A DNA stretch of 45,917 bases from a phage, in the NCBI GenBank assembly GCA_014750165.1, contig GCA_014750165.1_4319.1. One strand, 5' to 3'. Below, in pieces: positions 16,447 through 35,295 of this stretch. The translations under genes and the position numbers were made by a program. Each line of letters starts with the position of its first letter. Within the stretch, counting starts at the first letter, position 1. A model generated the notes under the pieces. It was not told the origin of the DNA and did no database searches. It was given only the letters and a program-made list of their open reading frames with translations.

Positions 16447-17412
16447 ATGAGATTTAAGGTTTTTACTCGAGAGGAACTAAGCAACGAGGCTTACCACTCA
16501 GAGACTGAACACATCTCCGGCAGCTCACTTGTTGAGATTATCCAGGGCTCACCAGCTAAGTGGAAATTCAAACAACGTAACAATGATAGCAAGGCTCTTA
16601 AGTTTGGCACACTAAGCCACACGATGATTCTCGAGCAAGATGTATTCGACAAGGAGTATCTTCGAGCTACAGATCTTGATGCGATTGAAGGATTAATTAC
16701 AAGTCAGACCGGATTGGCCTCAGCACTTAAAAAAGTTGGTGTAGCTGGCACGTCCGGTAAGGGGTATAGCGAGCTAGTAGAGATGATGCATCGCTCTGGT
16801 GAGGATTGGCCTGTTAAGTGGCTAATTGAGCAGCAGGAGAGCGCTCAGGCGCTCGTGGAGGGTAAAGAGCTAGTTAGTGCAGCGGACTATGACAAAGTGG
16901 TAGCGATGCGTGAGGTTCTTTGCAACATTCCAGCATATGATGCAATCGTGAACAGCGAGACGGCGCAGAAAGAGCTATCAATCTTCGGTGAGATTCTAGG
17001 TGTTGGCGTTAAGATTCGAATCGACCATGTTGATGTTGTTGATGGAGTCGTTCGGATCACAGATTATAAAACTACCGCAGACGCTAGCCCGGAAGGATTT
17101 GGTAAGTCGGCTTTTAATCACGGATACCTTGCAAAAATGGCGCTTCAGCGCGACCTGTTTGTGAAGGCATTCAACGAGAAGAGAAAGGTTATTGTAGGAT
17201 TGCTGGCGCAGGAGAAGGTAGAGCCATATTTACCAATGCTGTACACCTTGACGGACGAACAGCTACGAATTGGTCGTCTCCAGTATCTTGAGGCGCTCGC
17301 CACTTACAAGAAGTGCAAGGAGCTAGATATCTGGCCTGGATATTCGAACGGCATTACAGAGCAAGAATTGATGATTCCTGAGTGGGCGTTAAAACAATAT
17401 AAAGAAATCTAA
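16447..17412 (+). CDS. recombination exonuclease, PD-(D/E)xK family
   Basis: IRIDHVD...ITDYKT matches D...(D/E)xK nuclease core; located upstream of ERF and SSB genes. Confidence 0.55.
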   Translation: MRFKVFTREELSNEAYHSETEHISGSSLVEIIQGSPAKWKFKQRNNDSKALKFGTLSHTMILEQDVFDKEYLRATDLDAIEGLITSQTGLASALKKVGVAGTSGKGYSELVEMMHRSGEDWPVKWLIEQQESAQALVEGKELVSAADYDKVVAMREVLCNIPAYDAIVNSETAQKELSIFGEILGVGVKIRIDHVDVVDGVVRITDYKTTADASPEGFGKSAFNHGYLAKMALQRDLFVKAFNEKRKVIVGLLAQEKVEPYLPMLYTLTDEQLRIGRLQYLEALATYKKCKELDIWPGYSNGITEQELMIPEWALKQYKEI

Positions 17413-17430
17413 ATAGCACGAATTGCCAAA
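17411..17430 (+). promoter_or_regulatory. gene-boundary palindrome cassette
   Basis: AAATAGCACGAATTGCCAAA, GGGAT..ATCCC hairpin around TATAGT; precedes ERF gene. Confidence 0.5.
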
Positions 17431-17485
17431 ACAAAGCGGGATGACTTAGGTATAGTTATCCCATCAACAACGAACGAGGTTAAAG

Positions 17486-18136
17486 ATGCAAATTTCAGAA
17501 TCATGCAAATCAATTTTAAACGCGCTTCACACCGCTAAATCGCTATTTGCTAAGGCTGAGAAGTCTAAGCAGAACTCACACTTAAAGAACAAGTACGCCA
17601 CCTTAGAAGACGTGCTAGCGGCCGTTGAGCCAGGCTTAGATGAGTGTGGCTTGGTTATGTTCCAGAGCGTGCTTGATGATGAACAAACCAACCGTATGAA
17701 GGTTGAGACAAAACTGTTTCATGCTGAATCTGGAGAGTGGGTTAGCTTCTTGATGATAGTCCCAATCAGTAAGAATGATGCTCAAGGTTACGGATCTGCG
17801 CTTACATACGCTCGTCGCTACGGAATCACAGCAGCCTTAGGCCTTAGCCAGGCAGATGATGATGGCAATCTGGCAGCCAAGGGTGTTAAAGACTTTAAGC
17901 GAGAACTTGAGAAGTGTAATACGCTCGATGAGCTTCGTAACGTTTGGAAGGATGCTAAGCAATCACTTGATGCGGCAGGATGGAAGGTTTTCGAGCCTCA
18001 TATTATCGAGCGAAAAGCAGAGATTGAAGCAAACGCAGCAACTGGCTTCAACCCAGCAACACCAAAGAGAGTCGCAGAAAAAAGTAGTCCTGAAGAAAAG
18101 ATTGAAGTAGAATCACAACAAATCGACACATTCTAA
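17486..18136 (+). CDS. ERF-family single-strand annealing protein
   Basis: NKYATLEDVLAAVEP and TYARRYGITAALGL motifs resemble P22 Erf; between exonuclease and SSB. Confidence 0.8.
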   Translation: MQISESCKSILNALHTAKSLFAKAEKSKQNSHLKNKYATLEDVLAAVEPGLDECGLVMFQSVLDDEQTNRMKVETKLFHAESGEWVSFLMIVPISKNDAQGYGSALTYARRYGITAALGLSQADDDGNLAAKGVKDFKRELEKCNTLDELRNVWKDAKQSLDAAGWKVFEPHIIERKAEIEANAATGFNPATPKRVAEKSSPEEKIEVESQQIDTF

Positions 18137-18176
18137 TTTAAGAGGGGCTTCGGCCCAAACAATAGAGAGATAAAAC

Positions 18177-18608
18177 ATGCACGTAATTACTGGTCAGATT
18201 CGCCGCGCTCCGTTCACCAAAGAAGGTCAAAACGCTAATGGTACATGGAAAATGTTTGCGGTTGATTTGAGTGAGCGATACAAGGATAAAGATGGGCAGA
18301 CTCAGTATAGTAACTATCGCGCCGTCTTCTTCGCCAAAGAGTCCATGTTAGATTGGTATAATGAAGCATTTCAAGAGGGTAAGGTTATTAGCGTTAGTGC
18401 TGAAACATTGGCTGTAGATGTTAGGGATAAAGATGGTAAGACTTACGTTACTGTCAATATGAACAATCCTCGACTTGAATTTAGTCAGCGTGGTGATTCA
18501 GCAACACAACAGACACAGCAAAATCAACATCAGCCAAAACAGCAGCAACAGCAGAATCAACGACAACCACAGCAGCAAAGTCAATTCAACGATGACATCC
18601 CATTCTGA
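18177..18608 (+). CDS. single-stranded DNA-binding protein
   Basis: Gln-rich linker and C-terminal acidic tip ...FNDDIPF characteristic of bacterial/phage SSB. Confidence 0.85.
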   Translation: MHVITGQIRRAPFTKEGQNANGTWKMFAVDLSERYKDKDGQTQYSNYRAVFFAKESMLDWYNEAFQEGKVISVSAETLAVDVRDKDGKTYVTVNMNNPRLEFSQRGDSATQQTQQNQHQPKQQQQQNQRQPQQQSQFNDDIPF

Positions 18609-21238: not shown

Positions 21239-21259
21239 TGCGTAAAGTCTCCATTTGTA

Positions 21260-21279
21260 AAATAGCACGAATTGCTAAG
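21260..21279 (+). promoter_or_regulatory. gene-boundary palindrome element in inverted orientation relative to downstream minus-strand gene
   Basis: AAATAGCACGAATTGCTAAG on + strand between primase-like gene end and tailspike start. Confidence 0.4.
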
Positions 21280-21325
21280 TTGGATTGTAGCATCTTTCAG
21301 GTATAAAAAAACCTCCCGAAGGAGG

Positions 21326-22249
21326 TTAGTCTAGTAATTCACTTGCTTTGTATATTCGTTTTCTTATTCCTGACTTAAAAAAATTATCATCATTTGGCAT
21401 TACCACATCAAGATCGCGATCGTCAGCAACGGCGAGTAAATCAAAAGCGTGGCGAGTACAAGCGACGCGTAACTTGTAGTTTCTAAGCGCGTAAGCAACC
21501 ATTTCCATGTTGTAACTGGAGTGGCAAACAAGCACACAGCGGTTCCCTGTAGCAATGTGAACGCGATAGCCGTCAATGAAATTATCGACCAGATAAGCGT
21601 ACTCATCATCTTTAAAGGAACCAATAACAGCAATAGACTGGCGAGTATAATCTTTTGCAGCATAACTAACATCTCCCTCTTCATTGATAAACATTACATT
21701 GCACATTTCTTCTGATATACCATCACTATAGGCCATAAAACAAGGCACTGCGTGTATTAGTTCGCCTGATTTTGCCCTGCCAACATCAAAACCAAACTCA
21801 CTATAGATACCCTCGTATGTACTGAGCGGAGTTGATTCTACTCTTTCCGTCCTTTCCATTATCTCTAAGCATCTTTCGTGATCAATCTTGGCTCCCATTT
21901 TGTAGATCTGGGTTCTTGATGCTTGCTTGTTTGCCTTGTTGACAACCTCAACCGGGATAAGGTTTAGCCACTCACCGAGAACGTCGATACACTCACTGAA
22001 TGACTCGCCTCGAAGCTTCTGGACCCAGAGAATTCCATCCCCTGAGCCGCATTGGTTGCAGATAATGCCGCCATCACCCTCCTCGCTAACCTTGTTAGTC
22101 CATCTTGCCCTATCGTTGCCGCCACAATAAATGCACGGCTGATGCTTCTTAGTCTGGAAAAACTTAGGATCTGCGCCGCATATATTGACAAGAGCCTTAT
22201 CCCACAGGCCTCTCATTCTTGGTAGAACCTCTTTCTTATCGTAGTGCAT
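21326..22249 (-). CDS. putative DNA primase (Zn-ribbon plus Toprim-like region)
   Basis: CIYCGG...CNQCGSGDG zinc-binding motif near N-terminus; acidic Toprim-like segment (LLAVADDRDLD); assignment tentative. Confidence 0.45.
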   Translation of the reverse strand: MHYDKKEVLPRMRGLWDKALVNICGADPKFFQTKKHQPCIYCGGNDRARWTNKVSEEGDGGIICNQCGSGDGILWVQKLRGESFSECIDVLGEWLNLIPVEVVNKANKQASRTQIYKMGAKIDHERCLEIMERTERVESTPLSTYEGIYSEFGFDVGRAKSGELIHAVPCFMAYSDGISEEMCNVMFINEEGDVSYAAKDYTRQSIAVIGSFKDDEYAYLVDNFIDGYRVHIATGNRCVLVCHSSYNMEMVAYALRNYKLRVACTRHAFDLLAVADDRDLDVVMPNDDNFFKSGIRKRIYKASELLD

Positions 22250-22307
22250 ATCAATCTATCTCTTAACAAATAAAAAAGGATGTACCGATTATGGCACATC
22301 CAATTAT

Positions 22308-22781
22308 TTACCCTTTAGCTTTTCGTGCTGCCTCGTTAGCGGCCTTAATCTTGCGCCATGATCGACACTCTGGCTTGGTGGCTAACTCAGCCTCAGTAAC
22401 CACGCGTAGCATGTGACGCTTTTTGCACCGGAGTGTCAGTGGCTTGCCGTTACCGTCAAATTGCAGGTCTGGTCGGCAGAATGTAGCACGAAAACCCTCT
22501 CCGTTTCGTTTGTAGTAGTTGTGCGACAGTTGAGCACCGCGCGCAGAAATCATACCACGCTTAAACCATTCTTCTACAGCCTGCGGAGTTACCTTTAACT
22601 TCTTTGCAATATTCGCCTTTGTGACGAAGAAATCAAGGAGCATCTCAAGCCGCGCGCGTAGCCCGGCTCTTACTTCATCTTTTAAAACGTAGTAGCCTGA
22701 AGGTCGTTTACGTTGTTTTTTGTCTTCAGTGCGGATAGTTCCGTTATTACCGTTAGTGGTTCGCTTGTCAACTGCATTCAT
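22308..22781 (-). CDS. HTH DNA-binding protein (putative transcriptional regulator)
   Basis: Basic N-terminus and helix-turn-helix-like segment KKLKVTPQAVEEWFKRGMIS; divergent from helicase gene. Confidence 0.5.
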   Translation of the reverse strand: MNAVDKRTTNGNNGTIRTEDKKQRKRPSGYYVLKDEVRAGLRARLEMLLDFFVTKANIAKKLKVTPQAVEEWFKRGMISARGAQLSHNYYKRNGEGFRATFCRPDLQFDGNGKPLTLRCKKRHMLRVVTEAELATKPECRSWRKIKAANEAARKAKG

Positions 22782-22792
22782 TTCATCACCTC

Positions 22793-22813
22793 AATAGCAT
22801 TTTTTGTTAAAAG
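22793..22813 (+). promoter_or_regulatory. gene-boundary palindrome cassette, variant
   Basis: AATAGCATTTTTTGTTAAAAG in divergent region upstream of helicase. Confidence 0.35.
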
Positions 22814-22882
22814 TCATTCAGATTTGATGGTAGTATTGTACTCAATTAAACGCTACAAGACAATTTTTATAGGAATTTAGAT

Positions 22883-24877
22883 ATGTTGCCTATCGAGAAG
22901 CTGGTTGCAAACTTCGATAAAGAAAGAATCAAGCAGATTCAGAAAGATTATCAGTTTGGCGAGATAACCCCTTACGAGTTCCAGTGCGTAACATTCGATG
23001 CAATCGGAAAGGCTATTGGAAAGTACGAGGCCCCATTTATCGCTGACCTTTCCGTGTCTGCGGGTAAGACAATTATTCTCGCTATGATTGGAAAGCGTAT
23101 GGAGCAGCTTGGTCTTCCTTATATGGTCCTCTCTCGCCAGTCAGAGATAATCAGCCAGAACTCAGAAGAGCTTCGCAACTTCGGCATCCGTAACAGCGTC
23201 TATTGCGCTGGCCTTAACGTTAAATCAGTTTACTACCCAACCATAGTCGCTAGTGAAGGTACCGCGGCTAACGGCTTGTTTAAGGGGCTTGGTGACTATG
23301 TTCCGGCAGTTATCGCAATCGATGAGTGTCACATGCTTGATGCTATGGATATCGTTGAAGCCGAGGAGAACGAAGAAACATTTGAGCAAATGAGCACAAA
23401 GAAAGGTGAGATGGTATTTAAGGATGGTGTTAATACCGGGTTGCTTGGCACTGGCCGCGCGCAGTACACGCTAATCATTACCGAGATGAAACGTCGTTGT
23501 CGTGAGAAGTACGGTCGCGAGCTTAGGATTTTTGGCCTTACTGGTAGCCCATATCGTAACAACGATCACATTGTCGTTAGTAACCAAAATGTCCGTGGAT
23601 TCTGGCGCAAAACGGTAATACAAGTACCAACAAATTACCTTGTTGATTTGGGATTCGTTGTTCCAACCGTTTACGGAGAGGTTGGTGATTTGGGTTACGA
23701 CCTTGCAGAGTTTGCGCCAGACGGAAGCGATGGCGTTAAAGACTTTAGCAAGAAAGAAATGGAAGCAATGGCTGCAAAGATTCACGACAACCAATCCATG
23801 ACTCAAAGGATAATGGGTTTTGTTGTAAAAATACTTGAGACTCGAAACGCCGCATTGGTCACCTGTGCTGGCAAACTCCATTGTGATGAGGCTGCTGCGG
23901 CACTCCCAGACGGATACCCCTACGCCATCATCACAGACTCCACTGGAGAGAGGAAGCGCAGAGAGATTCTAGCTGATTGCCAGACTGGAAAGTACAAAAT
24001 AATATTCCAGATTGGCTGTCTAACTACGGGCGTAAACCAGCCATTGTGGGATACCAGCGTTATACTGCGCAAGATTGGCAGTTTGACTTTGATGATTCAG
24101 CTTCTTGGTCGTGGCATGCGAAAACTAAAAAAGGCGCACATAGATGCGGGGTTCAAGAAGGAGGATCACTTGGTATTAGACTTTGCCGGAGCGCTGGATG
24201 ATATGGCCGAGCTTTACTTTGACCCAATAATTGAAGAAATTCAGGCTGAGAAGTTCAAGTCCTCAAGGAAAGGTGGTGATGAGGCCCGTCAGTGCCCGCA
24301 ATGTGGATATGAGAACTCACCATTTGCTCGACGCTGTGGCAATAAGATTGATGGTGTTAGATGCGATCACTTCTTTCAGTTCACAACTTGCGAAGACATT
24401 ACGGACCCACAAACTAAATCGGTAATTAAAAAGGGATGTGGCGCTCGTAACGACATAGCGGCAAAGGTTTGCCGAGAGTGCGGTGAGATGCTTAAAGACC
24501 CGAATGCTAATCTGACCGGTAAGATGTATCGTCGAGGAGATTACTTGCGCGTTTATGATTTCCAGATTGGATTGAGTAAAAATCAAACAGGAATAGTAGT
24601 TAAATACAACATCATGGCACATAACGGAGAGAGGTTTAACGCGTGGGAATTCTTTAACCCTGAGTCTGACCATCGAGTTTGCAGTGTTCTATGGAAAAAC
24701 TTCTGCCTAGCTCATATTGAGAATCGAACAGAAGCAGCACGAATTGGAAGATTAAAGAATGCTAGAATGATCATGACCAACGTAGATAAGTTCCGTGCGC
24801 CAGTGCAAGTAACACACAGAAAAAACGGCAAAGGAAAGGACGTGATCGCGTTTAAGAATTTTGGAGAATTGAAGTGA
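22883..24877 (+). CDS. SF2 DNA helicase with C-terminal zinc ribbons
   Basis: Motif I SAGKT, motif II DECH, motif VI QLLGRGMR; C-terminal CPQCG...CDHF...CRECG cysteine pairs. Confidence 0.75.
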   Translation: MLPIEKLVANFDKERIKQIQKDYQFGEITPYEFQCVTFDAIGKAIGKYEAPFIADLSVSAGKTIILAMIGKRMEQLGLPYMVLSRQSEIISQNSEELRNFGIRNSVYCAGLNVKSVYYPTIVASEGTAANGLFKGLGDYVPAVIAIDECHMLDAMDIVEAEENEETFEQMSTKKGEMVFKDGVNTGLLGTGRAQYTLIITEMKRRCREKYGRELRIFGLTGSPYRNNDHIVVSNQNVRGFWRKTVIQVPTNYLVDLGFVVPTVYGEVGDLGYDLAEFAPDGSDGVKDFSKKEMEAMAAKIHDNQSMTQRIMGFVVKILETRNAALVTCAGKLHCDEAAAALPDGYPYAIITDSTGERKRREILADCQTGKYKIIFQIGCLTTGVNQPLWDTSVILRKIGSLTLMIQLLGRGMRKLKKAHIDAGFKKEDHLVLDFAGALDDMAELYFDPIIEEIQAEKFKSSRKGGDEARQCPQCGYENSPFARRCGNKIDGVRCDHFFQFTTCEDITDPQTKSVIKKGCGARNDIAAKVCRECGEMLKDPNANLTGKMYRRGDYLRVYDFQIGLSKNQTGIVVKYNIMAHNGERFNAWEFFNPESDHRVCSVLWKNFCLAHIENRTEAARIGRLKNARMIMTNVDKFRAPVQVTHRKNGKGKDVIAFKNFGELK

Positions 24878-25293
24878 ACATAACAGATAAAGAATATTAC
24901 ATTGAGTTTTACCCAGGTTCAGTTAAGTCATGCCCGAAAGAGGATGACGAACAAATCTTTTGCTCTGATTGGGTTAAGTATAACTATCCAGAGATGGTAT
25001 TTTTCCACTGTGTGAATGAGGGTAAGAAAACCATTGGTCAAGCAAGAAAAGACCAGGCAAAGGGTTTGCTCAAGGGCGTATCAGACTGCATGTTTTTGAT
25101 ACCTGAATCCGTGCGAGGAAGGTATCCATTTGGCGCAATAGAGCTAAAGAGAGCTGGAAAAACACAGGCTAGCCCAGTCAGTAACGAGCAGAAGTCATTC
25201 CTGAAAAGTGTAAGGGAATCAGGAGGTTTCTCCGCTGTGGCTTACGGTCGCGAGGGTTTTCTGGCAGCATTCAAAGAAATGATTTCTAAATAG
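24874..25293 (+). CDS. VRR-NUC domain nuclease
   Basis: 139 aa; D...ELK core (FLIPESVRG...AIELKRAGK) of the PD-(D/E)xK VRR-NUC type; GTG start overlapping helicase stop. Confidence 0.6.
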   Translation: MNITDKEYYIEFYPGSVKSCPKEDDEQIFCSDWVKYNYPEMVFFHCVNEGKKTIGQARKDQAKGLLKGVSDCMFLIPESVRGRYPFGAIELKRAGKTQASPVSNEQKSFLKSVRESGGFSAVAYGREGFLAAFKEMISK

Positions 25294-25308
25294 CACGAAT
25301 TGCTAAAC
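25288..25308 (+). promoter_or_regulatory. gene-boundary palindrome cassette
   Basis: AAATAGCACGAATTGCTAAAC then TATAGT and CATAGAAACGA; precedes 25371. Confidence 0.5.
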
Positions 25309-25370
25309 TCGATTTTAAAAGATGTTGTATAGTTACTTCATAGAAACGAAACACATAGAGAGATAAAGAA

Positions 25371-25577
25371 ATGAAATTAATGAAATTGAAACCTATCGAT
25401 ATCCGAGTTGGTGATTATATATATAGTGGATATACAGGAAAAAAGAAATGGCGAAGAGTATCTGAAATAATTGTTCAATCAGCATATAGGTATACATTAA
25501 TTATGAATTCGTGGAACTTATCAGCTGGTAGTTGTTGTGAATTTTTAGTAAAGGGTGTTCGTAACAATACTTTTTAA
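25371..25577 (+). CDS. hypothetical protein
   Basis: 68 aa, cassette-driven. Confidence 0.4.
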   Translation: MKLMKLKPIDIRVGDYIYSGYTGKKKWRRVSEIIVQSAYRYTLIMNSWNLSAGSCCEFLVKGVRNNTF

Positions 25578-25580
25578 TTA

Positions 25581-25599
25581 ATAGCACGAATTGCTAAAG
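25581..25599 (+). promoter_or_regulatory. gene-boundary palindrome cassette
   Basis: ATAGCACGAATTGCTAAAG then hairpin around TATTAT and CATCGAAACGA. Confidence 0.5.
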
Positions 25600-25660
25600 A
25601 CTAATCGGTGAGGTGGTGTATTATCACCACATCGAAACGAAACGCAGAGAGATAAACAAA

Positions 25661-25855
25661 ATGGCTACTATCTACACTGGTAAATTCTACGAATCACGCA
25701 AAACCGGTTACGAATATGAATTAGTAATCACCCCTGATGGTTATGTTCTTGACGATGGAGATGGTTACGCATTTGATGTTAGCCCAACTTACAAAGATGA
25801 TTTAGAAACTGTTAAAAACGCATTTGGCGAAAAATTTGACGAGGTATCAGAATAA
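25661..25855 (+). CDS. hypothetical protein
   Basis: Internal start MATIYTGKFY after GAGAGA; track start 25613 overlaps cassette. Confidence 0.4.
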   Translation: MATIYTGKFYESRKTGYEYELVITPDGYVLDDGDGYAFDVSPTYKDDLETVKNAFGEKFDEVSE

Positions 25856-26076
25856 TGGCAATTTTTAAATTTGAGCACCAATTGGAAGTGTTTAAGTTAA
25901 TGGCAGTTGAGGAGCTAAAGAAATCTGGATATAACAAAAACCCGTGGGACTTAGCATTTTGCCTGGATATGAGCTTTGAAGAAGACTACATGAACACTGA
26001 TATCGAGACATGGCGTGACCGTATGGTTGCTGACATTGCGGAAATGAAAAAAGATTGCCCAGAGGATTTTGAATAA
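25855..26076 (+). CDS. hypothetical protein
   Basis: TAATG overlap with upstream gene. Confidence 0.4.
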   Translation: MAIFKFEHQLEVFKLMAVEELKKSGYNKNPWDLAFCLDMSFEEDYMNTDIETWRDRMVADIAEMKKDCPEDFE

Positions 26077-26201
26077 TGAAAATTGTAGACAAAGAGATGT
26101 TTAGGGTTGCCCAGAATTTTGCTGAATTTGCAGTTGAGTTTCAATCAGAAGAGCATTGGATGTGCGCTAGAGAATATCTAAAACTGGCTTACGGACTATG
26201 A
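26076..26201 (+). CDS. hypothetical small protein (41 aa)
   Basis: ATGA-coupled ORF below track cutoff; approx coords. Confidence 0.3.
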   Translation: MKIVDKEMFRVAQNFAEFAVEFQSEEHWMCAREYLKLAYGL

Positions 26202-26446
26202 TAGTTGAAACCGGACGCGCCGCCGTATGGGCGCACTGTGGAGAGGCGGGGTTGCAGAATGACATTAAGCAGATATCCCGCTTCTTTGACATAAAAGATA
26301 TCAGTGTTGTTTTTAATGGTAAATTCTCTTACATGGATGAGCGACCAAGAAAATACGTAAGAGTTAAGCCAGGCGTCAGGATTGATGTTAATGAGTTCCT
26401 TAAATCTGAGGGATTCAAGTTTAAGATAACCAAGCCTAAGGATTGA
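26198..26446 (+). CDS. hypothetical protein
   Basis: ATGA-coupled. Confidence 0.4.
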   Translation: MIVETGRAAVWAHCGEAGLQNDIKQISRFFDIKDISVVFNGKFSYMDERPRKYVRVKPGVRIDVNEFLKSEGFKFKITKPKD

Positions 26447-26448
26447 GT

Positions 26449-26700
26449 ATGTTGGGTTTAGATTTTCAGCCAGAGCATTACGATTTAGCATATGGTAAAA
26501 GTGGTGCAAAGTTTAGAGCGATCCCTATTGCTGACTGGTTCCCTCCTGATTATGTGGATGTGAACGCAAAAACTAAAGACGGCAATTGGGTGCAGATTTA
26601 TTACTCGCCAGCATGTGGAAACCTTTGTATGACTGACCTTGATCAGAAATTAGCAATTAGTGCGGAAGTTATCGACTACTGGTTGAAAGAAGTTGAATGA
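26449..26700 (+). CDS. hypothetical protein
   Basis: ATG 26449 after AAGGA; track start is a TTG 6 nt upstream. Confidence 0.4.
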   Translation: MLGLDFQPEHYDLAYGKSGAKFRAIPIADWFPPDYVDVNAKTKDGNWVQIYYSPACGNLCMTDLDQKLAISAEVIDYWLKEVE

Positions 26701-26783
26701 AGAGCCTGATACTAGTAGCATTAGTCCCACTGTTTAGCTTTACTATCTTATACTTTATCGTAATGAATTAAGGAACTTATATA

Positions 26784-27920
26784 ATGGCAACTGCAAAAAT
26801 CACTAACGAAGAGCTGCGTGAAGAGCTTGCTAATGGCATGACAAACAAGGCAATCGCAGAGAAATACGGAATGAACATTCGCAACGTTGAATTGCGTCGT
26901 AGTAAATTGGCAAAGAGTGGAGAATTGCACGGAAACCCAGGTATCAAGAAGTTAGTTCCTGACGGTTATATGGTTAAGGGAACCTCCACGATGATTGATG
27001 CGGATGGTAACGAGAAGCTGCGCTGGGTTAAAACCTCTGTAGACAATGAGCGACTTGAGGTTTTAATGGAGCAAGCTCGAGAAGCATTTTGCTCTGATTT
27101 GCCAAAGGCTATTCCATCTGAATCACCGAATGTTAACTTTGATGATAACACGCTTGCGATGTATCCAGTTTTTGATTTACACATTGGGGCGATGGCTCAC
27201 AAACATGAGTGTGGCGAAAACTATGATACAGCAACAGCAGAGAAAGTAATGAATGGGTTCTTTGACTACGCTGTTGATAAGGCTCCAAACTCTAAGAATG
27301 CTGTATTGGTATTGGGTGGTGATTTCCTGCATTACGACTCTCTGGAGGCTAAAACCCCGGCATCAGGTCATATCTTAGATTCTGACAGTCGTTACGCCAA
27401 GATTGTTTATGTTGCAATCCGGTCAGTGCGTCGTGCCATTTCTCGAATGATGGAAAAGCACCAAGTTATTGAAATTAAAGTAATAAGTGGCAATCACGAC
27501 GAGGCAGGAATGGTTTGGCTCCGCGCTGCACTTGCTGCATTTTATGAAGATGAGCCTCGCGTAAATGTTGATGTTAGCCCAGCCGCAATGATGATGACCA
27601 GCTTTGGAACGACGCTTATTGGATACACTCACGGGCACCAAATGCGGAAAGCCGATACTCGACTAACTGTTATGGCAACTGATTTTCGTAAGTTATTTGG
27701 CCAAAGTGAGTATGTTTACACACATAGTGGCCACTGGCATTCGCAGAAGATTACAGAAACAAACTTGGGAATTGATGAGGTTCATGGGCAGCTTGGAAGC
27801 CCTGACGCGTACTCCGCAAATGGCGGTTGGCGTTCTCAACGTCAAGCGGCAGTCATTGTCTACCATAAAGAATTCGGTGAAGTTGGCCGATTCATTTGTC
27901 GCCCTAAAATGTTTGGCTAA
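26784..27920 (+). CDS. HTH-fused calcineurin-like metallophosphoesterase
   Basis: N-terminal HTH-like TNKAIAEKYGMNIRNVELRRSKL; MPP motifs D-x-H (FDLHIG), GDxxD (GGDFLHYD), GNHDE, THGH, GHWH. Confidence 0.65.
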   Translation: MATAKITNEELREELANGMTNKAIAEKYGMNIRNVELRRSKLAKSGELHGNPGIKKLVPDGYMVKGTSTMIDADGNEKLRWVKTSVDNERLEVLMEQAREAFCSDLPKAIPSESPNVNFDDNTLAMYPVFDLHIGAMAHKHECGENYDTATAEKVMNGFFDYAVDKAPNSKNAVLVLGGDFLHYDSLEAKTPASGHILDSDSRYAKIVYVAIRSVRRAISRMMEKHQVIEIKVISGNHDEAGMVWLRAALAAFYEDEPRVNVDVSPAAMMMTSFGTTLIGYTHGHQMRKADTRLTVMATDFRKLFGQSEYVYTHSGHWHSQKITETNLGIDEVHGQLGSPDAYSANGGWRSQRQAAVIVYHKEFGEVGRFICRPKMFG

Positions 27921-27940
27921 TAGCGCTTTTTGTTAAAACG
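27919..27940 (+). promoter_or_regulatory. gene-boundary palindrome cassette, variant
   Basis: AATAGCGCTTTTTGTTAAAACG then ATACCCGC..GCGGGTAT hairpin, ATCGAAACGG. Confidence 0.4.
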
Positions 27941-27992
27941 ATACCCGCGAAAGCGGGTATTATTGTTTTATCGAAACGGCAGGGGGATTGAA

Positions 27993-28485
27993 ATGAATTG
28001 GCATGATTTTTTTATACTATAAGGATGGAAAGGTTTTCTGGAGAGATCCGCACTGCACGAGATTGAAGCCAGGTGATGAGGCTGGTAGTAGGCACCATAG
28101 GGGTTATTGGTATATTCGTAGATATGACAAAACAATGTCAAGGCACCGAATCGTATGGGAGATGCACAACGGAACAATACCAGACGGTATGGAGATAGAT
28201 CATATAAATCACGTGCCTGGTGATGACAGAATTGAAAACCTAAGAATGGTCACAAGAAGGCAAAACAATCAAAACAAAAAATTAAATGAAAGAAATACAA
28301 GCGGACACGTCGGGGTTAGCTGGAACAAGAAGACAAACAAATGGAGAGCAATGATAGGCATAAGGGGAGAGGACGGAAAGAGGAAAACTTTATACGTTTA
28401 TTATGGTGATTCTTTCGATGATGCGGTATCAGCAAGAAAGAAAGCAGAGGCTGAGCACTCGTTTCATGAAAATCACGGTAAATAG
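27993..28485 (+). CDS. HNH homing endonuclease, interrupted by frameshift at T7 tract
   Basis: ATG 27993 with strong RBS (AGGGGGA) encodes MNWHDFF then stops; HNH body (track 28003..28485) is in +1 frame; an 8th T would restore MNWHDFFLYYKDGKVFW, matching the paralog N-terminus MNWNEIFEYRDGKIYWK. Confidence 0.7.
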
Positions 28486-28501
28486 CACTTTTTGCCTAAC
28501 T
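28481..28501 (+). promoter_or_regulatory. gene-boundary palindrome cassette, variant
   Basis: AAATAGCACTTTTTGCCTAAC then ATGCCG..CGGCAT hairpin and ATCGAAACGA. Confidence 0.4.
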
Positions 28502-28555
28502 CATGCCGTAGAAATGCGGCATAATCACCAAATCGAAACGAGATGAGGAATTGTA

Positions 28556-29029
28556 ATGATTTATGTATTTGATATCGATGGAACTATAGCTAATAATGAG
28601 CATAGAAGCCACCTCTTGCCATCCAGTGACCTTCACTTGACTTCAAGTTGGAAGGATTACAATAAAGCCTGTTCCGGAGACTCACCAATAATTCCAATGA
28701 TAAAAATGATGAATTCTTTAGCTGAGTCATCTCAAGTTTACATAATGACCTCAAGAAGTGATGAAGTTGAATGGAGAACGCTTCAGTGGCTTCATGATAA
28801 TGATGTTGAGTATGATTCGATATACATGAGAAGTCGACATGACAACCGAAAAGATTACAAAATAAAAGAGGAATGGCTTACTGAAATCAGTGGTGGCGAT
28901 AAAAGCAATGTGGTTATTTTTGAAGATAACCCGCAAGTAATCAAGCACTTAAGGAGCTTCGGATATACTGTAATGTCAGTTTGCGAATATGAAGACCTAC
29001 CTAAAGACTGCGAATCTCACGGAGAATGA
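28556..29029 (+). CDS. HAD-superfamily phosphatase
   Basis: N-terminal DIDGT motif (HAD motif I, DxDGT); 157 aa; ATGA-coupled to downstream kinase. Confidence 0.6.
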   Translation: MIYVFDIDGTIANNEHRSHLLPSSDLHLTSSWKDYNKACSGDSPIIPMIKMMNSLAESSQVYIMTSRSDEVEWRTLQWLHDNDVEYDSIYMRSRHDNRKDYKIKEEWLTEISGGDKSNVVIFEDNPQVIKHLRSFGYTVMSVCEYEDLPKDCESHGE

Positions 29030-29031
29030 AA

Positions 29032-29586
29032 ATGACTAAATTATTTATCCTTAATGGCCCAGCTGGAGTTGGCAAGGACACTATAGCCGATATCATGGTT
29101 GAGACTGGTGTCGCCAAAGAAAAGGTATCATTCAAGTCACCAATGTTTAACGTTGTAAAAGGAATGCTATCAAGCGATGAATTTGATGGATTCATCAAGA
29201 ATTACGACAATAGAGACTATAAGGAATCACCTCATGGATTTCTTAGCGGTATGACAGTTCGTGAATTTATGATTTGGATTAGCGAGTCTGTAATGAAGCC
29301 AGTCTTTGGTGATGATGTTTTCGGTAAAAGGCTAGCACAGTCACTTGGTGATGGTTGCTACATTTGCGCTGACGGTGGGTTTGCTAGCGAGATTAAGCCA
29401 CTGATCGACACTGGTGTTGAGGTAACGTTAATCAGGTTGCATAGGGAAGGGTACACATTTTATGGCGATAGTCGCTCATACATTCACGGTGTGTGTGCAA
29501 GAGAGATTGATGTTCATGTTGTTGATGGTGATATTAATGGAACATCAGCATTGGTAAGGCACGTAATAAATAGCACGAATTGCTAA
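29032..29586 (+). CDS. P-loop nucleotide kinase (dNMP kinase-like)
   Basis: N-terminal LFILNGPAGVGKDT Walker A resembling phage deoxynucleotide monophosphate kinases; start set at second ATG by RBS spacing. Confidence 0.6.
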   Translation: MTKLFILNGPAGVGKDTIADIMVETGVAKEKVSFKSPMFNVVKGMLSSDEFDGFIKNYDNRDYKESPHGFLSGMTVREFMIWISESVMKPVFGDDVFGKRLAQSLGDGCYICADGGFASEIKPLIDTGVEVTLIRLHREGYTFYGDSRSYIHGVCAREIDVHVVDGDINGTSALVRHVINSTNC

Positions 29587-29588
29587 AG
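29568..29588 (+). promoter_or_regulatory. gene-boundary palindrome cassette
   Basis: AAATAGCACGAATTGCTAAAG, TATCAT, CATCGAAACGA; supplies NSTNC-stop tail of kinase. Confidence 0.5.
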
Positions 29589-29654
29589 ATAATATTAAAA
29601 ACTGGGTTATCATTAACACATCGAAACGAGATGAACCAAACGAGGAAAAACAAA

Positions 29655-29831
29655 ATGACTAAAATGATTTACTGCACCAAGAACAACTCCAAGACGCTTC
29701 CATTTACAGTTAACCAGCCGTATAGCGCAGAGTACCAGGGCGATGGATACTACAAGATTTATGGCGACGATATGACGCACATCTTAGCGCCGATTGATGG
29801 TTCGTTAGTTGAATTTATTGTCGCTGACTAG
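29655..29831 (+). CDS. hypothetical protein
   Basis: Internal start MTKMIYCTK after RBS; track N-extension overlaps cassette. Confidence 0.4.
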   Translation: MTKMIYCTKNNSKTLPFTVNQPYSAEYQGDGYYKIYGDDMTHILAPIDGSLVEFIVAD

Positions 29832-29865
29832 CGCATAAAAAACATAGCGTTACGAACGGGGAGCC

Positions 29866-29893
29866 TTTTGGCTCCCTTTTTTTATGCTTCTTT
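29866..29893 (+). terminator. rho-independent terminator
   Basis: GGGGAGCC-TTTT-GGCTCCC hairpin plus T7 run. Confidence 0.55.
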
Positions 29894-29950
29894 TCCGAGC
29901 GGTGATAATGTATCATTCTTTTACTAACTTAAACATTGACAAATACATAA

Positions 29951-30178
29951 ATGGAGGATCACATGAGGGAAGTAATCAACGCTGCTACTGCGTCAACTGG
30001 CGGTGCTGCGGTAACTGGCGCAGCAACTGGTCAAATGACTATAGCAATAATCAGCCTCATCGCTCTTATTATTTTTGGTGTCTGGGGCGCTTACTGGAAG
30101 TTCAAAGATAGCCAGGCGATTCGTCGAGCACTTGAATCTGGCGACCTAAAAACAGCAATAAAGATAAGGAGTAAGTAA
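29951..30178 (+). CDS. holin (putative)
   Basis: 75 aa with one strongly hydrophobic segment (MTIAIISLIALIIFGVWGAYW) and charged C-terminus; immediately upstream of endolysin; start may be ATG 29963. Confidence 0.55.
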   Translation: MEDHMREVINAATASTGGAAVTGAATGQMTIAIISLIALIIFGVWGAYWKFKDSQAIRRALESGDLKTAIKIRSK

Positions 30179-30664
30179 ATGAAGCAGAAGCTGCTACTTA
30201 GCGCAGTTACGGCTGCGGCAATATACATCGCAGCGCCGCTTATTGAACTCGTTGAGGGTGTGGAGAACAAGCCTTACATGGACATTGCCGGAATACCTAC
30301 AGTCTGCGCGGGTATCACTGGTCCTGACGTAGTTTGGGGTAAAACATACAGCAACAGGGAGTGCCGTAACCTGCTGGAGAAACACATTCAGATTCATGGG
30401 GAGCATGTTCAGGATGCGGTTACCTACCCAATTGCACCGCAGACAAGGGCGGCGTTAATCAGCTTTAGCTACAATGTTGGCGGTTCAGCGATGAGGAAGT
30501 CTACGGCTGTTAAGTTGATTAACCAGGGTAATATTGAGCAGGGTTGCAATGCCCTCGGTATGTGGAATAAAGCTACCATTAATGGTAAGAAGGTTGTCGT
30601 TAAGGGGTTAGTGAATCGCCGGAATGAGGAGATTAAGTTATGCTTAAGTGGATTGCAGCGTTAG
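30179..30664 (+). CDS. SAR endolysin (lysozyme-like)
   Basis: N-terminal signal-anchor-release-like hydrophobic segment followed by catalytic region ELVEGVENKPYMDIAGIPTVCAGITG typical of phage lysozymes. Confidence 0.8.
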   Translation: MKQKLLLSAVTAAAIYIAAPLIELVEGVENKPYMDIAGIPTVCAGITGPDVVWGKTYSNRECRNLLEKHIQIHGEHVQDAVTYPIAPQTRAALISFSYNVGGSAMRKSTAVKLINQGNIEQGCNALGMWNKATINGKKVVVKGLVNRRNEEIKLCLSGLQR

Positions 30665-31029
30665 TGTTGTGTGTAGCTTTAACTGGATGCTCGGCAACAT
30701 CTGCGCTGACTGGTTTAATTGGCAGTAAGCCAGAGATTAGCGCTCAAGCTGGTGCAGAGAACAATAAGGTTGGTGTCGGGTTAACGAACAAGGTTGACTC
30801 CAGTAACTCCAGCGATGCTTCCGTTAAGGATTCTAGCGTAGGCTCTCTGGATAGCTCGAGCGGAAAAAAGACTGCTGACAATTCGATTAAGGCCTCAACA
30901 ATCACTGCCGAAAAGATTGAAATTACCAATAACGAATCATCAGCGCTTCCGTGGGTTGGAACAGGGGCTATGGGGTTGCTTGTTCTGATTCTCCTGGCCT
31001 TAATCTTAAGACGTAAAAAAGCCTCCTAA
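30640..31029 (+). CDS. unimolecular spanin (lipoprotein with C-terminal TMD)
   Basis: Lipobox ALTGC at N-terminus, Ser-rich periplasmic region, C-terminal transmembrane helix plus RRKKAS; overlaps endolysin end. Confidence 0.7.
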   Translation: MLKWIAALVLCVALTGCSATSALTGLIGSKPEISAQAGAENNKVGVGLTNKVDSSNSSDASVKDSSVGSLDSSSGKKTADNSIKASTITAEKIEITNNESSALPWVGTGAMGLLVLILLALILRRKKAS

Positions 31030-31046
31030 TGGAGGCTATATTTTTA
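31018..31046. terminator. bidirectional terminator hairpin
   Basis: GCCTCC-TAAT-GGAGGC hairpin with T-run; between convergent genes. Confidence 0.5.
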
Positions 31047-31379
31047 GCTAAATAACTCGTCGTCAGTCATTGTTCCTATATTCATCATCTCTTTTATGTA
31101 ATTGCTCTGATACCCGCCAAGCGCCTCGAAGTTGAAATCAAATGGCCTTTTCAAACTCCCCTTGCTAACAAACTCACCACACTTACCATCAATGTATCCA
31201 GCAGTTAACATCTTTGCGCAAAACTCCTTTGAAGCCGCGCTGCAAAACTCTCTATGAGATAACCCCGCCGCCTTGCTGAATCTCTGGGAGTCCTTATGTT
31301 GGTAGATGAATCGCGCCAAATGCTGACGCGTGAAAAAGCTATAAGATTCGCAAAAACGATACAAATCCAAAATGAACAC
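31044..31379 (-). CDS. hypothetical protein
   Basis: 111 aa; ATGA-type coupling to upstream ATPase gene. Confidence 0.4.
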   Translation of the reverse strand: MFILDLYRFCESYSFFTRQHLARFIYQHKDSQRFSKAAGLSHREFCSAASKEFCAKMLTAGYIDGKCGEFVSKGSLKRPFDFNFEALGGYQSNYIKEMMNIGTMTDDELFS

Positions 31380-31382
31380 TTA

Positions 31383-32966
31383 TCACCCCAGCAGTCGTGG
31401 ATTAATGTAAACTTTATCACCAATCAGGCAAGTATAGTTTTTCTCATCAAGCATTGGCAGTAAGTGATCTTTAATCTTCGTCATTACTCCAGCCTGAGCC
31501 TCGAATGGCTTAACCTTGCGAGCAGCTTCATACAATGAACGAATACCAACTACGCCCTTCCCGTTTTTCCCTTGCTTGATCAGGATATCAATCAGCTTAT
31601 TCATCTCGGCATTGTCGCCAGCGTGACCAGCTGCGCTGGCAGATGACAGGTAAGTCTTGCTTAGTTCCTGGAACATGATTACAGCTTCTTGCATGGTATC
31701 AAGTTCAATCTCTCTGGATTTCTGCGGACTCCCACCGTTAGGGTTGAACCAGTTACGAACAGCATGAAGAACGGCTGCAATCCTGATGGCCTGTTTATCG
31801 AACTTGCCCAGGGCACCACGTAACATTGTGTGTGAATACTTCCCGCCATCAGCAAGGTGAGGTTCCATTTCTTGGCGCGCTCGGTTGAGGTACTTCATCG
31901 CTGAGTTGCTTACTGTCAGCTTAACATCTTGCTCATTCATTATCTCATGAACTAAGCGGAAGTAATCAGCCTTTAGTCCACCATCAATTGGCTCGTAAGT
32001 TGAGTCTCCATTCTCATCAACAAATACACGCTCGCCCAGGAATGATTTTTCACGTACAAGCAGAAAACGCTCAGATACACCGATACCACGCGCACCGGCA
32101 TTCATGATTGCATTGATTGTTTCGTCTTGCGCAATTACAGAGATGCAACCCAAAGCAACGAAGCTCATGTTGTTCTCTGCGTTAGCACGCGCAATAGATA
32201 CGTTACCCGCATCCCATGCTTTAAGCACTAGTTCGCTGTTCGTTTTCTTTGAGCCATCACCATAGGTCATGCCAAGCAGTGAGTTCACGCTCGTTGCTTC
32301 ATCCGAGATTACAGCAAAGTTACCCTGACGGTTGTTTATTCGCGCAAGACCTTCCGGCGTGGTATCGGACACGGGGAAAACGATATCGCATAGCTTCTCG
32401 AGCTTCTCCTCTAACTCCTCTTTCTCCTCAAAAAGTGAGGCCATCTCTGATGGTGACTTTTCCTGTTTCATCTCTTTTGATAATGCAGACAGCTTTGCCA
32501 TAATCTTTTTACGCTCACGCTTTCGCACTTCATTCAGCCGCTCAGTCTCAGCAATCATTGGAGCAATTGAAAGTGAGTTAATTGCTGATTTACCTGTCGA
32601 TGGCGGCTGGCTTGTCACGACATAAAGCGAAGTTGGCTGCTGAGTTCCGTGATACTCAACAGTGAATCGACCAAGCATTGCAGCGGAAATACACCCCAGG
32701 AAGTGCATATATGCGGACGACTCAGGAAACTGAACAGAACGAGCAATATTGGCTGACAGCTTACCAACAACATCAATATCATTGCCTAGTGAGATTACAG
32801 GGTACTTGTCATTAGCCGCATCAATCTCTACAGGTGCCTTCCAGAATGATTGAGACTGGCGATAGCCATTGGCATTAATAGCCACGCGCAGGGGTGGGAG
32901 GTTGTCTGCGGCTGCAATTGCCATAACCTGTTCAACAGATAGCTTATCTTCGTTGAAATCAAACAT
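31383..32966 (-). CDS. putative replication ATPase (primase C-terminal DUF3987-like P-loop domain)
   Basis: Deviant Walker A TSQPPSTGKSA and Walker B FAVISDEAT; 527 aa; family assignment from motif recall only. Confidence 0.45.
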   Translation of the reverse strand: MFDFNEDKLSVEQVMAIAAADNLPPLRVAINANGYRQSQSFWKAPVEIDAANDKYPVISLGNDIDVVGKLSANIARSVQFPESSAYMHFLGCISAAMLGRFTVEYHGTQQPTSLYVVTSQPPSTGKSAINSLSIAPMIAETERLNEVRKRERKKIMAKLSALSKEMKQEKSPSEMASLFEEKEELEEKLEKLCDIVFPVSDTTPEGLARINNRQGNFAVISDEATSVNSLLGMTYGDGSKKTNSELVLKAWDAGNVSIARANAENNMSFVALGCISVIAQDETINAIMNAGARGIGVSERFLLVREKSFLGERVFVDENGDSTYEPIDGGLKADYFRLVHEIMNEQDVKLTVSNSAMKYLNRARQEMEPHLADGGKYSHTMLRGALGKFDKQAIRIAAVLHAVRNWFNPNGGSPQKSREIELDTMQEAVIMFQELSKTYLSSASAAGHAGDNAEMNKLIDILIKQGKNGKGVVGIRSLYEAARKVKPFEAQAGVMTKIKDHLLPMLDEKNYTCLIGDKVYINPRLLG

Positions 32967-34043: not shown

Positions 34044-34535
34044 CTACCTCATTCCGCTGTTCTTGTGGTATTTCGCATTAACCTCAGCAACAATCCTCGC
34101 CTCGCAAGCACAGATAAAGTCTATGAATGTTCCTAAACATACAATTTTCCCATCTATGCTAATTCTTGCCGACCACTTACCTCTAACATCCATGTTCACA
34201 CCAGTTACCCCTGGCTTTCTTCTTACATACCTTTTGAGATTCTTATGATTTTCCATGTGGCTAACTAGCCTTAAGTTTTCAATCCTATTATCAGACCTAT
34301 CTCCATTAATGTGGTCGATCTGCATTCCTTTTGGTATATCTCCGTTGTGAATAATCCAGACCGCTCGATGGCAATAAATTAGCTTATTCTTAACCCTAAA
34401 TGCCTTGTATCCATGGCTATGCATGCAGCCAGCCTCGTCACCAACTTTTACTTGGGATGAGTTATACTTTCTGTAAAGTTTCCCATCCTTATACTCTACG
34501 GCGTTTACAATATCCTCAACTAGAATGGCACACAT
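34044..34535 (-). CDS. HNH homing endonuclease
   Basis: HNH core QIDHINGDRSDNRIENLR; paralog of 7483 and 27993 genes. Confidence 0.8.
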   Translation of the reverse strand: MCAILVEDIVNAVEYKDGKLYRKYNSSQVKVGDEAGCMHSHGYKAFRVKNKLIYCHRAVWIIHNGDIPKGMQIDHINGDRSDNRIENLRLVSHMENHKNLKRYVRRKPGVTGVNMDVRGKWSARISIDGKIVCLGTFIDFICACEARIVAEVNAKYHKNSGMR

Positions 34536-34770: not shown

Positions 34771-35040
34771 TTAGATTTATTGATTGTTGCATATATTGCA
34801 ATGATTATCATGACTATTGCACATATGGCAATATTGCTTCAGATGCAATGATGTTTTTGATTGTTGCGAAAAGTGAAATGAAGTGGTGAGTGAGTGAATG
34901 AAAGATGGATGGACTACCATACAAGTTGATTTTTATTCTTGCTGAGCCATTTTCACGCATACGCGTTATAAAAGTTATGCCTTGTGGATGATGCCACCCT
35001 CCGCAGTAATCGTGCACGCCTATAACGCTGAATTACGCAA

Positions 35041-35295
35041 TGGTTACACTATAATATCTATATATAACAACCATTTAGTATAATTATTATTATTATATAT
35101 ATTACTATGTATATCATGTAACCACGCATCCGGCGGGGGTCGATAGTTTTTCTATGAAAATGACATTTTCTATATATATAAGGATAGGCATATACCCTCC
35201 CCGATTTCCGCGGAAATCCATACACAGGCAAATTACATACGCTATAGCTGGGCTGAGGTAGCAAAAAGCGTAACCGGGGCCAATATAAACACGAA
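35041..35295. repeat. AT-rich intergenic repeat copy B with (TTA)n tract and relic gene start
   Basis: Arms match 15665..15935; right arm retains an ATG-less in-frame relic (GTAGCAAAAAGCGTAACCGGGGCCAATATAAAC) of the 15902 gene start. Confidence 0.6.

Follow-up and report, generated by a model that had tools for sequence, protein, structure and literature searches.

A primase-like protein without the canonical Toprim residues and its probable DUF3987 helicase partner in an Rtp-like siphophage

The two proteins and their relatives

The stretch of DNA analysed here, 45,917 nucleotides of a phage (NCBI GenBank assembly GCA_014750165.1, contig GCA_014750165.1_4319.1; hereafter the window), amounts over its 45.9 kb essentially to the whole genome of an Rtp-like siphophage (Drexlerviridae, Braunvirinae). 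Two of its minus-strand genes are the subject of this study. The first (21326..22249, ATG start) encodes a primase-like protein of 307 amino acid residues, the homolog of T1 gp24 and Rtp51, with a zinc ribbon and an RNA-polymerase-domain (RPD) fold of the DnaG/T7 type. The second (31383..32966, ATG start) encodes a DUF3987 protein of 527 residues, an MCM-like AAA+ helicase homologous to T1 gp09 and Rtp67. The genes are separated by 9,133 bp and belong to separate transcription units. A preliminary description of the window had recognized a Zn-ribbon plus Toprim-like protein and a DUF3987-like P-loop ATPase, about 9 kb apart on the same strand. Both assignments and the distance agree with the results given below, and the profile searches placed neither protein in an unrelated family.

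The 12-kb region around both genes shares 82-88% nucleotide identity with phages ACG-M12, SCS31, UALMA_PCEc3, vB_EcoS_FP, Msk, SU57 and Rtp. In the records of relatives, the counterpart of the first open reading frame (ORF) is annotated as 'DNA primase' (Rtp51, 'similar to gp24 of phage T1') and that of the second as 'DNA helicase' (Rtp67, 'similar to gp09 of phage T1'). Protein identities with the Rtp group range between 73 and 93% across both proteins; identities with T1 are approximately 42% for the primase-like protein and 57-60% for the helicase. The pairs gp24/gp09 and Rtp51/Rtp67 are orthologs of the two window proteins, with the same gene order, strand and spacing.

The primase-like protein matched the Pfam family Zn_Ribbon_Prim at residues 34-73 (E=2.3e-09, 37.8 bits, cut-off 23) and the PHROGs family phrog_510, 'DNA primase' (3.5e-96). 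The four cysteines of its zinc ribbon (22031..22150, minus strand), C39, C42, C64 and C67, are together with G44 the only invariant residues of the T1-type family, as judged from 34 divergent members with a mean identity of 32%. A fold comparison identified the N-subdomain and the Toprim-like subdomain of the DnaG/T7-type RPD. The latter spans residues 211-290 (21380..21619, minus strand) according to alignments and secondary structure, and the canonical catalytic Glu and DxD are absent from it. None of the Pfam Toprim models matched the protein. Searches of PDB sequences with each of the two proteins and with the family profile returned chance matches and a weak match to the zinc domain of DnaG, and neither protein is covered by an NCBIfam model.

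An exhaustive profile search with the primase-like family retrieved 2,974 relatives. The top-scoring ones are stand-alone proteins of approximately 300 residues like that of the window, and the full-length ones with lower scores comprise stand-alone Zn-ribbon/Toprim_3 proteins and long fusions. Such fusions surfaced solely in this search; word-indexed homolog searches gave Drexlerviridae-type proteins of constant length only. Single polypeptides with both parts, to which the preliminary description had referred, do exist: P0270 (911 aa), P0271 (869 aa) and P0326 (824 aa) consist of Zn_Ribbon_Prim, Toprim_3 and DUF3987 and represent the same two module types. Their N-terminal 260-290 residues are homologous to the primase-like protein but, unlike it, carry a canonical E-G-Y-A-T-G motif and a DxD. 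Their DUF3987 domains match that of the window weakly (hhalign probability 17%, E=0.0014). Elsewhere the same primase module is fused to D5_N/DUF5906/Pox_D5 (P4-alpha-like), DUF3631, DUF927 or VapE ATPases. Bifunctional primase-helicases such as T7 gp4, P4 alpha and the ZnR-Toprim-DUF3987 fusions are single polypeptides, whereas the window has two ORFs. Among the relatives, a group of 226-residue 'primases' without zinc ribbon (clusters P0061-P0064; L169, 53-733) was rejected as a case of true splitting, since the gene starts 53 nucleotides from the contig end and represents a truncation artefact.

Catalytic-site residues of the primase-like protein

In the P4 alpha protein, the 'EGYATA' primases of IncI and IncP plasmids, T7 gp4 and DnaG, activity requires a catalytic Glu, a DxD and a third acidic motif. 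None of these motifs is conserved in the T1-type family, a feature that the preliminary description had missed. T1-type and canonical groups were aligned in three ways, with MAFFT, with hmmalign and by profile-profile comparison (E=6.6e-54, 265 columns), and all three agreed. The Toprim Glu-Gly and the DxD are present in 52 of 52 canonical relatives of comparable divergence. In the canonical alignment A5, with a mean identity of 27%, E241, D287 and D289 are invariant and G242, T245, D326 and D329 are at least 90% conserved. In contrast, not one of approximately 136 T1-type proteins keeps the canonical E-G...D-x-D set, and none of those residues is conserved among them.

At the end of Toprim strand 1, where canonical primases carry the catalytic Glu of the E-G motif, the T1-type family shows V, S, T, I and other residues. 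The window protein has D222-N223 in the Glu-Gly columns and R266-H267-A268 in the DxD columns, no acidic residue within 264-269, and neither the DxD after Toprim strand 3 nor the third acidic motif after strand 4. The corresponding residues are L-N and P-S-D in phage T1 and V-D and A-N-D in TLS. Even proteins that are more than 80% identical differ in the DxD columns, which read RHA, RHD, RHS or RHY, the last column being A, D, S or Y. T1-type proteins likewise have other residues in place of the lysine of the 'GxK' motif and, in the N-subdomain, of the 'HPYL' motif. Since the catalytic Glu and the DxD were sought and are missing, the protein is best described as a variant of the DnaG/T7 primase kind and not as a verified member. 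Judged from the alignments, the canonical invariant catalytic set is not conserved in the T1-type family. The stronger reading of a completely dead site is rejected in view of the semi-conserved, positionally variable acids and the DxD of the Rtp subgroup (see below).

In one uncultured relative (L086, 2146-2916), the primase-like gene beside the DUF3987 gene encodes Zn_ribbon_DnaG instead of Zn_Ribbon_Prim and a Toprim domain that keeps the Glu (E-D). This gene may be an intermediate or a domain swap.

The DUF3987 helicase and gene neighbourhoods in related phages

The second protein matched DUF3987 over residues 81-431 (E=8.8e-42, 144 bits, cut-off 27) and phrog_2373, 'DNA helicase' (1.7e-258), and its ATPase motifs are intact. 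The Walker A motif QPPSTGKS (residues 120-127; 32586..32609, minus strand; alignment A2), the Walker B motif S221-D-E223, R300 within an MCM-like 'SERF' motif and R383 do not vary among 21 homologs, the most distant of which have 36% identity. The predicted structure has an MCM-type AAA+ fold and a C-terminal winged helix (approximately residues 450-527; 31386..31619, minus strand). MCM and other SF6 helicases and the staphylococcal Cch (DUF927) share with it the MCM-type topology of the AAA+ core, the arginine-finger-like 'S-x-R-F' motif and the C-terminal winged helix, at identities of 11-18%; in contrast to them, the window protein lacks the MCM N-terminal OB/zinc domain and carries a hairpin insert of approximately 65 residues. 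In the protein model this insert is a lysine- and glutamate-rich helical hairpin directly past the Walker A helix (residues 126-191, 32394-32591), which is absent from MCM cores and could serve as an oligomerisation arm or a partner-binding arm.

DUF3987 proteins have been assigned to SF6 and predicted to be replicative helicases; fusion to a DnaG or AEP primase, or a neighbouring gene for one, is frequent (Kazlauskas et al. 2016, PMC4889955). The sole biochemically studied representative combines PriCT and DUF3987; it is a 5'-3' helicase that depends on its Walker motifs, and it binds the partner primase (PMC11724360). In this integrated element the primase AgaPP and the helicase AgaPH are likewise separate proteins that bind each other, and helicase activity depends on Walker A and B. 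Unlike the window pair, AgaPP is an AEP PrimPol and not of the DnaG type, AgaPH has an N-terminal PriCT domain, and the two genes are adjacent (PMC11724360). From the structural model the window protein is a probable replicative helicase. The idea of the preliminary description that primase functions are split between the two genes is not supported, since both the model and the literature (PMC4889955; PMC11724360) identify DUF3987 as an MCM-like AAA+ helicase module and not as a part of a primase. The two-gene state is moreover conserved throughout the clade, and the layout is a standard one that was already annotated for Rtp51/Rtp67 and T1 gp24/gp09.

A third gene, on the plus strand and divergent from the primase-like operon, encodes a RadD/YejH-like SF2 helicase related to T1 gp22 (22883..24877; Pfam Helicase_C, phrog_16, synteny). 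It matched the NCBIfam model RadD NF053632 at 1.1e-50, which is below the curated cut-off. RadD-type helicases, as known from RadD of E. coli, are repair or recombination enzymes and not fork helicases, and the resemblance to RadD therefore makes this protein the poorer candidate for the fork helicase. The literature on T1 and TLS calls the adjacent SF2 protein 'the helicase' and pairs it with the primase as replication initiators (PMC11447400).

The neighbourhood of T1-type primase-like genes was examined in 80 IMG/VR loci of Drexlerviridae. In 69 of them the same strand carries a DUF3987 gene 7.4-9.6 kb upstream; in each of the remaining 11 the upstream flank was shorter than approximately 9.7 kb. 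The SF2 helicase gene always adjoins the primase-like gene in divergent orientation. The spacing is constant across the Drexlerviridae, down to a primase identity of 41%, and the window conforms to the synteny of the family (DUF3987 helicase, lysis/SF2 block, regulator, primase-like protein, tail fibre, SSB, Erf and exonuclease).

A second set of loci surrounded more distant relatives of the window helicase (35-47% identity). In approximately 30 Jersey-like genomes (e.g. Salmonella phage Vi II-E1, L109) a plus-strand DUF3987 gene is followed after 200-800 bp by a convergent primase-like gene and then by the SF2 helicase gene. In approximately 14 uncultured loci DUF3987, primase-like and SF2 genes follow each other in one direction with gaps of -25 to +300 bp, and at one locus (L093) the DUF3987 gene begins within the primase-like gene. 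The two genes are immediately adjacent or overlapping in approximately 45 loci outside the Drexlerviridae. Four loci (L083, L123-125) have a DUF3987 gene and no primase-like gene within 10 kb. In one of them, on a 78-kb contig (L083, 10001-13483), the SF2 helicase gene directly follows the DUF3987 gene; either the module can exist without a primase-like gene or this gene is kept elsewhere.

A fusion of both modules was found in 0 of 160 related loci, and no primase-like gene linked to a helicase of the window's type has the canonical motif set. The recurrence of both genes and the SF2 helicase gene next to each other in related phage groups supports a functional module of three genes. On this comparative evidence the primase-like and DUF3987 proteins are very probably functional partners, and their separation in the Drexlerviridae looks like an old, family-wide rearrangement.

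A replication-initiation module, its alternatives and the surrounding genes

We consider it somewhat probable that both ORFs belong to a conserved three-gene module for replication initiation, in the form that it takes in the Drexlerviridae, and that the primase-like protein is more likely non-catalytic or strongly altered than a conventional primase. In the following scheme only the folds, the motifs and the gene linkage are what the analysis shows; complex formation, polarity and primer source are its inferred parts. The DUF3987 protein would act as a hexameric replicative helicase, at the fork or in origin opening. The primase-like protein would dock on it, perhaps via the conserved F-K-x-G...D-L-L tail at its C-terminus, residues 286-307, with the zinc ribbon reading the single-stranded DNA template, and would serve as an adaptor, loader or template-recognition subunit. 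Primers might then be made by the host DnaG, which we regard as slightly more likely, or by the primase-like protein through a non-canonical site. The RadD-like helicase, a VRR-NUC protein, a RecE-like exonuclease, Erf and SSB would serve recombination-dependent replication and concatemer formation.

Host elongation dna genes, dnaG included, are reportedly needed for the DNA synthesis of T1, which would be in line with priming by the host. Neither a DNA polymerase nor a second primase was found in the window or in Rtp, and lacking a polymerase of its own the phage must use the host Pol III. T1 and TLS are likewise without polymerase and second primase (PMC11447400). As a more specific and tentative proposal, for which the chances are somewhat below even, T1-like (Drexlerviridae) and Jersey-like siphophages may share a conserved pseudo-primase that gave up the two-metal site and became a DNA-reading adaptor or loader of the MCM-like DUF3987 helicase, with priming and polymerisation left to the host DnaG and Pol III. 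The metazoan Twinkle can be compared with such a protein, being a helicase of the T7 gp4 type whose primase-like domain is inactive. Twinkle, however, is a fusion that lost the zinc finger and has a RecA-type SF4 motor, whereas the primase-like protein of the window stands alone, keeps an invariant zinc ribbon and has an MCM-like AAA+ motor as its presumed partner.

Several observations weigh against the scheme outlined above. In Rtp proper the residues are nearly canonical (D-N ... D-C-D), and the Rtp subgroup has D-C/S-D; the window pair shows no structural difference from its T1 and Rtp orthologs, but the primase-like protein has R-H-A after strand beta-3 in place of the D-C-D of Rtp. Across the T1-type family acids accumulate around the canonical positions without ever becoming invariant, with D at 222/223 in approximately 60%, D226 in approximately 70% and an acid at 268/270 in approximately 85% of the proteins. 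Measured against the zinc ribbon, conservation of the RPD/Toprim region comes close to that in canonical primases (mean pairwise identity 0.21-0.28 versus 0.26-0.30), which suggests that it is under selection and could still be catalytic; this domain-wise comparison does not separate a relic from a functional domain. By the same sequence comparison the region appears functional, yet its function need not be catalysis. Our literature search found no published assay of any T1-type gp24 or gp09 homolog. MCMs move 3'-5'. Unlike them, the tested DUF3987 protein runs 5'-3' (PMC11724360), a discrepancy that bears on the polarity to be expected of the window helicase. A physical interaction between the two window proteins is suggested by gene neighbourhood and existing fusions only, and a foreign helicase would not obviously recruit the host DnaG.

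An alternative is a conventional two-subunit primosome in which the 307-residue protein is a fully active DnaG-type primase that uses shifted carboxylates (D222, D226, D270, D276/D277) and primes for the host Pol III on DNA unwound by the DUF3987 protein. The primase fold with its invariant zinc ribbon, a purifying selection on the RPD like that in canonical primases, the enriched acids, the DxD of the Rtp subgroup, the expectation that a phage with its own non-DnaB helicase needs its own primase and the uniform public annotation as 'DNA primase' are all in its favour. We nevertheless regard it as rather unlikely: at a mean identity of 32% the T1-type family has no invariant carboxylate, while E, D and D are 100% conserved in canonical relatives at 27%; R-H-A occupies the DxD columns of the window protein, where close relatives are free to vary, and T1 has L-N in the Glu-Gly columns; the GxK lysine and the HPYL motif are lost, and no Pfam Toprim model matches. 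For the catalytic state taken by itself, the alignments tip the balance just perceptibly towards a protein that is non-catalytic or strongly altered.

The proteins might also not be partners at all, the primase-like protein working with the adjacent RadD-like SF2 helicase and the distant DUF3987 ATPase having an early role of its own, for instance in origin binding, in initiation alone or in host takeover. The primase-like gene indeed adjoins the SF2 gene in every arrangement class, PMC11447400 names this pair as replication initiators, the DUF3987 gene of the Drexlerviridae lies in a different, early-looking transcription unit, and the four loci with an apparently solitary DUF3987 gene would fit as well. 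The adjacency or overlap of the two genes outside the Drexlerviridae, the existence of fusions of both module types, the recurrent association of DUF3987 with primases together with one physical interaction in the literature (PMC4889955, PMC11724360), and the role of RadD-type helicases in repair and recombination, not at forks, make this improbable.

A literal fission, in which a fused Zn-ribbon-Toprim-DUF3987 gene was recently split and its halves dispersed in the window genome, is more improbable still, even though fused proteins of this domain order exist. The two-gene state is common to all Drexlerviridae (to 41% primase identity), the Jersey-like phages and the uncultured relatives. The adjacent forms mostly have the helicase gene before the primase-like gene, the reverse of the domain order in the fusions, and the fusions belong to the canonical branch by their Toprim motifs and have DUF3987 domains only remotely similar to that of the window.

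Earlier work had already described the gene pair, its annotation and the general association of DUF3987 with primases, and a spacing of 9 kb is nothing unusual in Drexlerviridae. Two aspects appear to be undescribed: the loss, throughout the T1/Jersey-type 'primases', of the invariant Toprim catalytic signature, and the comparative evidence that ties the primase-like protein to the DUF3987 helicase and not to the SF2 helicase alone. Whereas the T1/TLS literature highlights the SF2 helicase, the neglected DUF3987 gene probably encodes the replicative helicase, with the primase-like protein as its partner. Hundreds of T1-like and Jersey-like genomes, including those of many phage-therapy and BASEL phages, carry the label 'DNA primase' on proteins without the canonical catalytic residues. 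Should the protein be inactive, the label given by annotation pipelines is wrong, and phages that already lack a polymerase would rely on the host for their primers too. Such a dependence would alter the view of replication, host range and sensitivity to replication-sensing defence systems in T1-like and Jersey-like phages.

The surroundings of the two genes in the window are as follows. A gene for a helix-turn-helix regulator (22308..22781, minus strand; phrog_2856, 2e-81; annotated in Rtp as Rtp52) lies directly upstream of the primase-like gene. Between the two is a terminator-like hairpin with a 9-bp stem followed by a T run (22278..22301, minus strand); given the strength of this hairpin, expression of the primase-like gene would need read-through or a promoter of its own. 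A second terminator-like hairpin is located right 3' of the primase-like gene (21310..21327, minus strand), where a terminator is also annotated in SU57. The helicase gene is directly followed, in the same direction, by a conserved ORF of 111 residues related to T1 gp10 (31044..31379, minus strand; phrog_2794, 1.2e-56; annotation of relatives). A bidirectional terminator-like hairpin (31020..31037), annotated in SU57, closes this transcription unit. The plus-strand block between the two genes encodes, besides the RadD-like helicase, a VRR-NUC protein, small ORFs, a metallophosphatase-type exonuclease, a polynucleotide kinase, a deoxynucleoside monophosphate kinase, a holin, an endolysin and a spanin. 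The RecE-like exonuclease, the Erf annealing protein and SSB are encoded on the plus strand at 16447..18608 (PHROGs; annotation of Rtp47-49) and represent the recombination genes of the same replication/recombination module.

Within this module, a lateral tail-fibre gene (18641-21268, minus strand) is located between SSB and the primase-like gene. Only the approximately 350 N-terminal residues of its product are conserved, and the C-terminus is pectate-lyase-like. An HNH endonuclease ORF (34044-34535, minus strand; Pfam HNH_3, 1.5e-20) belongs to the early operon on the minus strand, in which it precedes the helicase gene. The position of HNH genes shifts among relatives, as seen for Rtp20, Rtp40 and an insert between the primase and SF2 helicase genes of Vi II-E1-like phages. 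Iteron-like repeats were sought near both genes, and none was convincing. In the small-ORF block past VRR-NUC, a direct repeat of 82 nucleotides with 72% identity in two intergenic spaces (25289-25370 and 25580-25661) is probably a repeated promoter or regulatory element; promoters are annotated in SU57 at matching places. Where the minus-strand early operon and plus-strand genes diverge, clustered short direct repeats together with a palindrome of A and T only (34777-34881 and 35088-35186) mark a candidate promoter or origin region. Lastly, three database records labelled as Pseudomonas phage PsgS01F (PP134917.1), Campylobacter phage A110b (MG065688.1) and Acinetobacter phage vB_AbaM_AB4P2 (OR544125.1) are 87-91% identical to coliphage or Salmonella phage DNA in the region studied here, and their host labels look doubtful.

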